64,000 nucleotides of DNA from a virus. Shown here one piece after another: positions 59,494 through 64,000 of this stretch. Location: the IMG/VR virus record IMGVR_UViG_3300032235_000467. One strand, written 5' to 3'. Numbering within the stretch: the stretch's first letter is position 1; every line of letters begins with the position of its first letter. The notes beneath the pieces were generated by a model. That model was not told the DNA's origin. It worked only from the letters and a program-made list of their open reading frames with translations, and made no database searches. Made by a program: the position numbers and the translations under genes.

Positions 59494-59821
59494 TAAGGAA
59501 AACTTGTACATTATAGAGGTCTTAGATAAGGAGAAGACAATTAAAGATGTTCTATCAGAACATGAAAGAAATCTTTCTATGGCTATAGTGGAAAAGATAT
59601 GCTACGCCATGGATAATGATATAAAGAAAATTAACATAGCTAGAATATACACAGACTCAATAGCAATAACCTTGCACACGTCACTCCCTAACTTCCAGGA
59701 GACATTAGAAACAAACATACAGAATCTTATAAAGCACGAGGAGTATGAGATGTGCGCCATAGGTAAAAAGCATTTAGATATTCTAAAAGAAAAACCTAAT
59801 AGAAAATATTTGAATATATAG
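59483..59821 (+). CDS. Hypothetical protein with EEYEMC motif
   Basis: In-frame ATG 59483 overlaps the previous gene end; similar to 57680..58042. Confidence 0.55.
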   Translation: MDFDKENLYIIEVLDKEKTIKDVLSEHERNLSMAIVEKICYAMDNDIKKINIARIYTDSIAITLHTSLPNFQETLETNIQNLIKHEEYEMCAIGKKHLDILKEKPNRKYLNI

Positions 59822-59840
59822 AAATATATATTTATCTTTG
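59809..59840 (+). promoter_or_regulatory. Bacteroidota-type promoter of the tmRNA gene
   Basis: TTTG - 20 nt - TATCTTTG, overlapped by ATATTTAT at 59828 and ending 9 nt before the tmRNA 5' end. Confidence 0.7.
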
Positions 59841-59849
59841 TAAACATAT

Positions 59850-60275
59850 GGGCCTAACCGGTATCGATTCGTAATCGGAGGGTAGTACCACACGCAGAGA
59901 CACCGTACTAGTTCTCTTTAAATCTGTACGAAACAATAAATGACGAGATGTCAACTATGACCTTCGATGACCTTATGGCTTTCGTTGGTGCCGATGAAGC
60001 AACATTTGCTTAGTCCGCCGAGGTGTCTACAACCTCGCTTCAAACAAAGTGGAACACAGAGTTTCCCCGATCGACTCATTAAATAAGGACTGGGGTGGTG
60101 GTTAGCTGTCTCCGGACATCCCCTTACTGATCAGCTTGCAGATCAAAACTACGGTGCAGCTGAACCTTGTGCTATCCTTTACTGATAGTAAACAAGTAGT
60201 AGTCAGTACTAAGCGTGTGAGATGCTGGTGCTATTGTTCATTGCGAAGACGTGGGTTCGAATCCCACTAGGTCCA
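59850..60275 (+). ncRNA. ssrA: tmRNA
   Basis: Acceptor stem GGGCCTA/TAGGTCC with G3:U wobble and discriminator A; T-arm GTGGG-TTCGAAT-CCCAC; pk1-like AGAGA/TCTCT plus CGTAC/GTACG; ATAAAT-GAC resume context; tag ORF 59942-60013. Confidence 0.92.
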
Positions 60276-60309
60276 CTCAAAGGTTTAGGTTAGGATTAAG
60301 GTTAAAACG

Positions 60310-62145: not shown

Positions 62146-62436
62146 ATGGAAAAGTTTTCAAAACAGTGGTGCGAGATATGGGATCCATCTAGGCCTCATG
62201 ACTTTGATATTGAGGCAATTGCAAAAGATATGCATAACGATAGGTACTATCCTATATTTTGTGAAGGGTTTGGTTTTAATTGTATTCATAAAGATGGTTA
62301 TGATAACATATGGTTATCTTTTGGATATGATGAATATGGAAACAGCACTGTCTGGAGAAGGTATAAATCTTTAATAATAGATCAACAGAAAAAAGCGACC
62401 AAGAATGAAAGTAGCAGTATTCAGCGACACCCATAA
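62146..62436 (+). CDS. Hypothetical protein
   Basis: 96 aa with FSKQW...DFDI...CEGFG pattern. Confidence 0.6.
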   Translation: MEKFSKQWCEIWDPSRPHDFDIEAIAKDMHNDRYYPIFCEGFGFNCIHKDGYDNIWLSFGYDEYGNSTVWRRYKSLIIDQQKKATKNESSSIQRHP

Positions 62437-63142
62437 TAAACATAAACAGGTAGAACTACCTGAGTGTGATATTGCTATATTTGCTGGAGATTTATCCTCA
62501 GTGGGCCACAAGCACGAAGTAGAAAGCTTTATTAACTGGTATGGTAAGCAACACCAATGTAAGCACAAGGTATTTATTGCTGGGAATCATGATAAATCAT
62601 TTGATAAGAAATTCTTCCATAGCTTTGAAGATCATGACTTATTCAAACAAAATGAACATCTAGGTAAGCCTGGATGGTTAGTAGACATGCTGGATAGAGC
62701 CAAGGCTGTATTACATATAAACTATCTTGAGAATAGTTCTGTCATAATAGAAGGTATAAAGATATGGGGTAGTCCTATTACTCCAAGCTTTTATAAGCAG
62801 TACTGGGCCTTCAATGCCGATAGGAATGAAGATATCCAATCTTATTGGAATAAAATACCTAAAGATGCTAACATCGTTGTAACTCACGGACCGGTGCATG
62901 GCAAGTTAGATTATATACCAGAGAGTAGCGAGTATGTAGGGTGTGTAGATCTTAAAGCTAAGATAGAAGAAATAAACCCTTTAATGTTTATTTGCGGACA
63001 TATCCATTCAGGCAGAGGCATATATAATACAGATAAAACATTGTATGTCAATGCTTCCATAATGGATAACAGTTATAATAAACAAGGAGAACCTATGCTA
63101 TTCAATATAAATGTGGATAAGTTAAGAGTCGATTTCTCATAA
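62405..63142 (+). CDS. Calcineurin-like metallophosphoesterase
   Basis: SDTH, AGD, AGNHD, THGP, GHIH. Confidence 0.92.
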   Translation: MKVAVFSDTHNKHKQVELPECDIAIFAGDLSSVGHKHEVESFINWYGKQHQCKHKVFIAGNHDKSFDKKFFHSFEDHDLFKQNEHLGKPGWLVDMLDRAKAVLHINYLENSSVIIEGIKIWGSPITPSFYKQYWAFNADRNEDIQSYWNKIPKDANIVVTHGPVHGKLDYIPESSEYVGCVDLKAKIEEINPLMFICGHIHSGRGIYNTDKTLYVNASIMDNSYNKQGEPMLFNINVDKLRVDFS

Positions 63143-63196
63143 TAAAATCGGTAATGCTCAAAGAATAGTCTTATCTTTACGTCAGTTCTTTGAAAT

Positions 63197-63223
63197 AAAA
63201 AAGGGCCGATATAAATCGACCCT
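63197..63223 (-). terminator. Intrinsic terminator for the minus-strand holin-like gene
   Basis: Minus strand AGGGTCGAT-TTAT-ATCGGCCCT followed by a T run. Confidence 0.75.
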
Positions 63224-63250
63224 ACTGTTTTACAAATAAACTTGGATGTC

Positions 63251-63412
63251 CTACTTCTTTTTAGAAGCAATAGACCAACCAGCACCGACAAGTGTCATGA
63301 TGCCTCCGAGTACTTCTTGGAATAATACCTCATCTACTAAGCCTTTAGCAACGATAACGCCACCAACAAAGGTTAATGCATGTCTGATGAGTCCTAATAC
63401 TTGATCTTTCAT
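63251..63412 (-). CDS. Small two-TM holin-like protein
   Basis: MKDQVLGLIRHALTFVGGVIVAKG...GGIMTLVGAGWSIASKKK; upstream minus-strand ATATTTAT (63458-63465) and its own terminator. Confidence 0.7.
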   Translation of the reverse strand: MKDQVLGLIRHALTFVGGVIVAKGLVDEVLFQEVLGGIMTLVGAGWSIASKKK

Positions 63413-63485
63413 TTTAATTGATTTAAGTTTAAAAAAATTCATAACATTTGATCACATATAAATATCTGAAAAACCAAAATAACAA

Positions 63486-64000
63486 GCCCGAAGGCCACGG
63501 GATCGAAAACTCAGGAACGCCTCTCTAATTGCCTTGAGATAGTATCGACTAGGATTACGAAGCGCACCAGTCCTCTAGATCGTTAGCTAGCGGTGTAAAG
63601 CAATCCCACTGGAGAATAGGATTGCAATTAAGGTTGATTGGGATAGGGTTGCAGGGTAATGCCTGACCTGACAGGTTAGAAACGCCAATCGTAAAAGCAG
63701 ATGTCCACGCACCCATCTTCTGCTTTCCTAAAATAGTCAGGTGGCGGAATGTAGACGCAAGTTTAAGGTGTTGTTACCTACCCGTTAAAAGGAACATACA
63801 GGTTCGAATCCTGTCCTGACTGCTAAAAGTACTTACTACGCTACCCATAAGAACAGCGTCCCAGAGTAAGTCTTTTGCTGACACGCACGGCAACCGAAAG
63901 CATACTAGACACTGCTTAGGCAATGCGAGGAAACATGAAGAATACGTCACGGTGCGTACGTAACTATCAAGTTCTTCTGACTGTGGGGAATAGACCCACT
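63486..64000 (+). ncRNA. Large structured non-coding RNA region (class unassigned, possibly GOLLD-like; 3' truncated)
   Basis: No ORF in the track, GC-richer than the flanks, with successive stems: CCCG/CGGG, CTCAGG/CTTGAG, AGGATT/AGTCCT, GCAATCC/GGATTGC, GATTGG/CCAATC, AAAGCAGA/TCTGCTTT, ACTTACT/AGTAAGT, GAAGAA/TTCTTC, GTGGG/CCCAC. Confidence 0.65.
63735..63822 (+). tRNA. tRNA-like element (Leu-type D-arm, no canonical anticodon arm)
   Basis: Acceptor AGTCAGG/CCTGACT, D-arm GCG-GAATGTAGA-CGC, T-arm ACAGG-TTCGAAT-CCTGT; the middle does not form a 5-bp stem with a 7-nt loop; CCA not encoded. Confidence 0.6.

Follow-up and report, generated by a model that had tools for sequence, protein, structure and literature searches.

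A three-way-junction RNA motif and tRNA-shaped elements in a modular non-coding region of a freshwater phage

The non-coding stretch and its neighbours

The window, that is the whole 64,000-nt stretch of freshwater phage DNA analysed here, ends in a region (63443-64000) without any + strand ORF of at least 30 aa, which bears out an earlier note reporting more than 500 nt without an ORF. On the minus strand there are ORFs of 41-74 aa, the largest at 63774-63998, which we rejected as not credible because the largest loses part of its length to a 199-nt indel in a relative with 98% identity. The GC content of the stretch is 0.46-0.475, the same level as in the tmRNA, against ~0.23-0.40 (about 32%) in the genes. 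G001, the nearest record, shares 98% identity with the window across 63400-63732, and its homologous non-coding stretch measures ~760 nt and reaches a tRNA-Leu(UAA), with the tRNA-Leu and a tRNA-Met downstream. The window copy likewise continues beyond 64000, as had been anticipated. The features discussed below are collected in Table 1.

In addition to the tmRNA, the phosphoesterase and the holin of the window, G001 carries an RNA ligase gene (PF09414, phrog_968) downstream of the cluster (L005:5990-7123), and the combination of phosphoesterase, RNA ligase (in G001), tmRNA and tRNAs resembles a neighbourhood for RNA repair. Among cultured phages, those of Flavobacterium have the nearest relatives of the window phosphoesterase, at ~36% identity, and, judging from these relatives, the host is likely a member of the Bacteroidota. 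Two phages closely related to the window phage have group I introns (RF00028, ~97 bits) some 2 kb ahead of the phosphoesterase gene, at L007:1802-2025 and L008:1920-2143.

Ahead of the cluster lies the AT-rich motif ACATATAAATAT, and a related motif, ATATAGAAATAT, is found at 59816-59827, 22 nt ahead of the tmRNA gene. Motifs of the ACATATAAATAT class are over-represented in the window (40 matches, with 25.6 expected), and the flanks of ACATATAAATAT are conserved in close relatives only. The motif, which precedes the RNA cluster as well as the tmRNA, is a candidate phage promoter element, and a promoter belonging to the cluster itself is plausible.

Table 1 Features of the RNA cluster and its surroundings (window coordinates)
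Feature	Position	Strand	Description
tmRNA	59850-60278
Calcineurin-like phosphoesterase gene	62405-63142		Upstream of the RNA cluster
Terminator-like hairpin	63202-63223		Divides the RNA cluster from upstream genes
Holin gene	63251-63442	minus
Candidate promoter motif	63454-63465	+	ACATATAAATAT; ~20 nt ahead of the first conserved RNA base
M0-M1, 5' extension domain	63484-63627	+	Three hairpins; 12 aligned relatives (A5)
M0-M1 hairpin 1	63487-63490 with 63498-63501		CCCG/CGGG; loop AAGGCCA with self-complementary GGCC at 63493-63496
M0-M1 hairpin 2	63575-63578 with 63587-63590		CUAG/CUAG
M0-M1 hairpin 3	63600-63606 with 63619-63625		GCAAUCC/GGAUUGC
M2, three-way-junction RNA motif	63631-63729	+	92-copy alignment and covariance model R1
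M2 P0	63631-63633 with 63727-63729		AGG/CCU, plus variable extension
M2 P1	63635-63641 with 63685-63691		UGAUUGG/CCAAUCG
M2 P2	63642-63684		Variable insert between the P1 strands; 0-60 nt across copies
M2 P3	63694-63701 with 63719-63726		AAAGCAGA/UCUGCUUU
M2 loop	63702-63718		17 nt, UGUCCAC-NNNN-CCAUCU
tRNA look-alike	63735-63823	+	Rfam tRNA at 63735-63822, 35.5 bits, E 1.4e-5, in the sensitive scan only
M3 hairpin	63824-63876	+	Loop ACGCUACCCAU resembles the M2 loop
M4 structured RNA	63879 to beyond 64000	+	Invariant 5' UGACACGCACGG; variable two-stem domain
M4 long stem	63934-63943 with 63971-63979
M4 inner hairpin	63944-63961
M4 terminal hairpin	63983-63999		GUGGGG/CCCAC

A three-way junction supported by covariation

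To delimit the parts of the region we used BLAST against loci with the neighbouring phosphoesterase gene as their anchor, module-wise BLAST and alignments. Five pieces were obtained (M0-M1, M2, a tRNA look-alike, M3 and M4), and pieces of the region recur separately and in shuffled order among phages. The main result concerns M2, with 112 distinct copies gathered from contigs of uncultured phages, 92 of them aligned (alignment A3) and 20 found by a search blind to the loop. In the 92 aligned copies 93.2% of the cells are paired and double changes occur at 12 of the 21 pairs; 500 shuffles never attain these values, and controls slid by 1-3 columns are 34-54% paired. P1 is paired at 100% and P3 at 99.5% in these copies. 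P1 is the GATTGG...CCAATC stem picked out in the earlier note, and it forms in all 92 copies, with compensatory changes at 4 of its 7 pairs. The leading pair of P1, U-G in 67 of the copies and U-A in the remaining 25, identifies the + strand as the RNA strand. The unpaired nucleotides AGGUU, AG-AA-GC and UAAAAG are invariant, together with 13 positions of the loop. The alignment shows M2 to be a three-way junction that displays its loop and has helices held by selection.

The covariance model R1 gives the window copy 106.9 bits (E 5e-25), this copy being one of the 92 seeds and so matching in part by construction. Neither the window nor any of 180 loci holds a second, divergent M2 copy by this model. 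Folding energy does not single out the motif: the minimum free energy (MFE) fold of the single M2 sequence departs from the covariation-supported fold (z −0.14), and energy-based checks look negative because the MFE fold misses that structure. Over 63470-63735 the z-scores are +0.84 for the + strand and +0.34 for the minus strand, with no excess over shuffles, and module-wise values range from −0.14 to +0.62 except for the hairpin at 63824-63876. The structure rests on covariation rather than on thermodynamic stability.

The first collection was built on the 16-mer TGTCCACGCACCCATC, which fixed the loop by construction, so the search was repeated with the 15-mer TGCCAATCGTAAAAG, consisting of the P1 3' strand and the junction and therefore blind to the loop. 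It returned 33 copies with the canonical loop and 26 matches (20 distinct) with other loops, all of which match R1 at 67-101 bits. These other loops read (U/C)GUCCAC-NNNN-CCAUCU, with variation in the central four bases, and three P3 pairs covary perfectly among them. The conserved loop surface consists of two 6-7-base blocks flanking a variable centre, and since conserved blocks surround a variable centre, a plain 16-nt antisense role is unlikely. The search for a complementary partner gave a similar picture. No complement of the loop beyond chance is present in the window, complementary 8-mers are not enriched in ~1.16 Mb of flanking phage DNA, and the best duplexes of the loop with a Flavobacteriales rRNA operon (−22.5 and −20.6 kcal/mol) fall within the shuffled-loop distribution (mean −20.3, sd 1.9). 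The canonical loop contains CACGCAC, and ACGCAC is also an invariant sequence of M4.

At least 120 stretches of phage DNA in IMG/VR contain the 16-mer, and the M2 motif is missing from just 2 of the ~105 distinct flanks inspected. In loci L019, L022 and L025 the segment corresponding to 63630-63732 is 83-93% identical to the window, and the phosphoesterases of the same loci are only 39-42% identical to that of the window; by this comparison M2 is more strongly conserved than the neighbouring phosphoesterase gene. The motif lies inside a tRNA array in these three loci, ending a few bases ahead of a tRNA, and in L019 and L114 it stands alone between two tRNAs. Among 91 distinct copies a tRNA or T arm begins within ~12 nt downstream in 28 and ends close upstream in 37, so that 55 (about 60%) have a tRNA-type element on one side or the other and 10 on both. 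One phage clade has a conserved ORF of ~92 aa starting 33 nt after M2 (L086:2950-3222, in ~20 related loci), with the pattern MxQEVYTDYE...HDWxFHFNPY and without a match in Pfam or PHROG; this arrangement is confined to closely related contigs. For bacterial genomes (596 Gb), at least 120 matches to the 16-mer were listed, with ~280 expected by chance, and nearly all are chance matches in unrelated GC-rich genomes. The true M2 copies in bacterial assemblies among the matches listed are two short contigs of Bacteroidota MAGs, and these matches thus give no support for chromosomal copies or for an antisense target.

Accompanying modules and searches for known families

The 5' extension domain M0-M1 shows compensatory changes at 7 of the 20 pairs of its consensus fold. 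Hairpin 1 occurs also as CCAC/GUGG and CCCA/UGGG, hairpin 2 as CUGA/UCAG and CUAA/UUAG, and hairpin 3 as GCAACUC/GAGUUGC. The pairing of GCACC (63564-63568) with GGTGT (63592-63596), put forward in the earlier note as a pseudoknot, turns out to be a nested pairing that would enclose the CUAG hairpin. We rejected it: it is broken in 3 of the 12 relatives, and the consensus fold favours a competing pairing, CC/GG (63572-63573 with 63592-63593). M0-M1 is found just upstream of M2 in every fetched locus that contains it; in L096 a tRNA-like element ends immediately before it. Because M0-M1 was seen only together with M2, the two may belong to a single RNA of ~250 nt (63484-63734).

The embedded tRNA-like domain named in the earlier note is real and lies downstream of M2. 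Its score lies above the 29-bit cut-off of the Rfam tRNA family (RF00005), and sequence and fold give a 7-bp acceptor stem (AGUCAGG/CCUGACU), a class-II-type D arm and a canonical T arm with a 5-bp stem and a UUCGAAU loop. A canonical anticodon arm (5-bp stem, 7-nt loop) and G18-G19 are absent. The D loop, AAUGUAGA, has no GG, and in the Rfam alignment 32 nt stand in for the 17-nt anticodon arm, folding into two short hairpins with 4-nt loops. ARAGORN called the element 'tRNA-Lys', placing its 'anticodon' at position 28. In other phages several M2 copies are followed by paralogues that share the acceptor stem and T arm and have bodies of 68-123 nt, and G001 has no look-alike at the corresponding site. 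The family includes the window element, L005:7232-7336 and members in L096, L152, L205 and L195, with several paralogues per genome, none of which encodes CCA.

The M3 hairpin has an MFE of −12.6 kcal/mol (z −4.17), and none of 200 shuffles folds as well; a homologue was found in no fetched locus. We considered M3 as a duplicate of the M2 helix P3 and rejected this, the alignment being unconvincing and the likeness limited to short motifs. For M4, the alignment of 11 relatives (A4) has compensatory changes at 9 of 24 consensus pairs, including the long stem and the terminal hairpin, as in GAAGAA/UUCUUC against ACAGAG/CUCUGU. Of the branched fold proposed earlier for this part, the CGCA...TGCG junction finds partial support, with GCA/UGC (63890-63892 with 63924-63926) and CC/GG (63894-63895 with 63919-63920) covarying in the 11 relatives, and the AAGCA/TGCTT stem is present in the sequence type of the window and L008 only. 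The sequences ACGCAC (63883-63888) and GUGCGU (63952-63957) could pair as a pseudoknot across the covariation-supported stem; both are invariant and hence uninformative for covariation.

In relatives M4 ends ~5 nt ahead of another tRNA-like element or a tRNA-Leu, and after it come another tRNA look-alike and, ahead of tRNA-Leu, one more conserved module of 118 nt. This 118-nt module (L005:4343-4458), directly upstream of tRNA-Leu and just past the point at which the window stops, is 84-94% identical in 7 relatives and has a fold z-score of −1.4. The modules are combined in several ways: G001 lacks the segment equivalent to window 63733-63931 and has its own sequence type in the 5' half of M4, L009 and L010 have M4 without M0-M2, and in L008 M2 and M4 are 2.5 kb apart. 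The structured modules assort independently, often bounded by tRNA-type elements.

The region was compared with known RNA families at two levels of stringency. Searching 63100-64000 against Rfam 15 at E ≤ 10 gave tRNA and chance-level matches only, with no match to the ribozyme families, and the search of the whole window at gathering score (150 bits for GOLLD, RF02032) listed neither GOLLD nor ROOL, nor the tRNA element at 63735-63822. The check with added downstream sequence proposed at the outset was run on the complete homologous region of G001 (L005 3780-4620), where the sole family matched at E ≤ 10 was tRNA. The suggestion of a GOLLD-like RNA is not upheld, since GOLLD, ROOL and other Rfam families give no match at E ≤ 10 and the same tool gives 289.9 bits to a true GOLLD in phage locus L022; the conserved 3' domain of GOLLD is not present in this region. 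The genomic setting is of the GOLLD type, phage-borne and adjoining tRNA genes (tRNA-Leu and tRNA-Met in G001, tmRNA and holin in the window). In L022, GOLLD (487-899) heads an array of 15 tRNAs and M2 lies at 2218-2348, so the two coexist there as distinct RNAs.

No match to YrlA/Y RNA (RF02553) was obtained at E ≤ 10 in the window part or the G001 region, and no Ro60/Rsr gene was seen adjoining the cluster, which is flanked by the phosphoesterase, the holin and, in G001, the RNA ligase. Among GenBank phage records, a 601-nt query from the region gave no match and the 66-nt 3' half of M2 gave chance matches only (E ≥ 2). M2 matches no Rfam 15 family, and the literature searched holds no description of it. 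Fremin et al. (2023) mined IMG/VR for covarying intergenic motifs and reported 8,495 candidates in DNA viruses, some of them tRNA-like (PMC10690425). The text of that study gives no motif with the features of M2, which may be an unnamed entry of the same catalogue.

Interpretation and comparison with known systems

We think it probable that the region encodes several independent, folded small RNAs, spaced by tRNA-shaped elements, at the head of a stable-RNA gene cluster of the phage. Small RNAs cut from one transcript fit best because the modules combine differently in different phages. A single co-oriented, promoter-led + strand transcript would start at ~63470-63485, and host RNase P and tRNA 3'-end enzymes would cut it at the look-alike (63735-63823) and again at the tRNA-like and tRNA-Leu elements just beyond the window end. 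The predicted products are the ~250-nt RNA made of the 5' domain and M2, the tRNA look-alike, and an M4 RNA of ~125 nt.

A single new large RNA, the other possibility raised by the earlier note, would be an unprocessed, multi-domain molecule of >700 nt of the GOLLD/ROOL kind, possibly oligomeric, with the tRNA-like elements in its linker. The continuous, ORF-free and GC-rich character of the region, with its ~760 nt in G001, suits such a molecule, as do the self-complementary GGCC in the first-hairpin loop, the true GOLLD preceding a tRNA array in a related phage locus, and the general placement of GOLLD and ROOL near phage tRNA islands, the GOLLD linker being able to hold tRNAs (PMC12286853). 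We nevertheless consider it unlikely, since the pieces are found singly and reordered elsewhere, M2 is directly bounded by ordinary tRNAs in many phages, and a 199-nt block that includes the look-alike is dispensable between 98%-identical genomes; the window and the full homologous region also lack any GOLLD or ROOL match at E ≤ 10.

Catalysis by M2, and perhaps by M4, is about as doubtful, or slightly more so. The proposal here is a self-cleaving RNA that helps to process the polycistronic tRNA transcript, and the compact three-way junction, its unusually many invariant unpaired nucleotides and its location at RNA-processing boundaries are what speaks for it. Small ribozymes of several classes are also common in the DNA of phages. 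However, no Rfam ribozyme matches at E ≤ 10, the sequence reveals no cleavage-site signature, and the adjacent tRNAs already supply RNase P/Z sites.

Two further explanations we hold to be very improbable. Functionless remains of tRNA genes with spacer, or sites that act at the level of the DNA, for example as targets of recombination or homing, would account for the degenerate look-alike, the exchange of blocks at conserved sequences among relatives and the chance-level MFE z-scores, but neither produces compensatory changes that keep helices 99.5-100% paired in ~100 copies, and conservation is also above that of the neighbouring protein genes. A cis-acting 5' leader controlling a downstream gene, suggested by the clade with M2 33 nt ahead of the 92-aa ORF, where M2 may act in cis, is equally hard to sustain in general, as this association is limited to closely related contigs and the next element in the window and in most loci is a tRNA, a look-alike or an RNA module and no ORF.

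M2 would act in trans, presenting its loop and conserved junction to a partner, which may be a phage factor or a conserved component, protein or RNA, of the host machinery for translation or RNA processing. A role in translation, RNA repair or counter-defence is proposed because of the nearby tmRNA, tRNAs, phosphoesterase and, in G001, RNA ligase. Tentatively, and with a good deal of doubt, we suggest that M2 represents a new functional class of phage RNA, serving either as a new small ribozyme or as a decoy or inhibitor of a conserved host factor for RNA processing, translation or defence against phages. Hundreds of freshwater phages, probably of Bacteroidota, would then make use of it, with the 13 invariant loop bases as its active or recognition surface and specificity tuned by the four variable bases at the centre. 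Together with the neighbouring tmRNA, phosphoesterase and RNA ligase, the modular cluster points to a set of phage tools directed at host translation or RNA-based defence.

The setting recalls phage T4, in which two small, structured and stable RNAs other than tRNAs (species 1 and 2, or RNA C and D, from rnaC and rnaD) are made from the tRNA cluster. These are co-transcribed with the tRNAs and freed by tRNA-processing enzymes, and their function is unknown. As in T4, the cluster described here is located within or at the head of phage tRNA genes on the same strand, but T4 is an enterobacterial phage and the likeness is one of setting, with no kinship in sequence or structure expected. M2 differs from the T4 RNAs by its three-way junction, its long conserved loop and its occurrence in more than 100 uncultured freshwater phage contigs. 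Y RNAs (YrlA, RF02553) also join a structured RNA to a tRNA-like module, whereas the look-alike in this cluster is a separate, dispensable unit, and Rfam gives no YrlA match.

GOLLD is a modular RNA with a variable 5' part and, sometimes, tRNAs embedded in a linker, and ROOL is an RNA of phages and prophages located near tRNA islands, with unknown function (PMC12286853). The present cluster shares with GOLLD its phage-borne position beside tRNA islands and its modularity, and GOLLD and M2 even share locus L022; in contrast, the modules here measure 50-250 nt, assort independently and match no GOLLD model. The likeness to ROOL is again that of a phage RNA near tRNA islands, with no model match and another size and fold. 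Phage tRNA islands are known to host enigmatic RNAs (GOLLD, ROOL, T4 RNAs C and D), to which M2 adds a compact member of ~100 nt, in a phage group that assembles its stable-RNA cluster from interchangeable modules, spaced by tRNA-shaped elements sharing one acceptor stem. M2 should be tractable, having a secondary structure with strong comparative support and a clear place beside tRNAs, and its small size and conservation open it to direct tests of partners, self-cleavage and three-dimensional structure.
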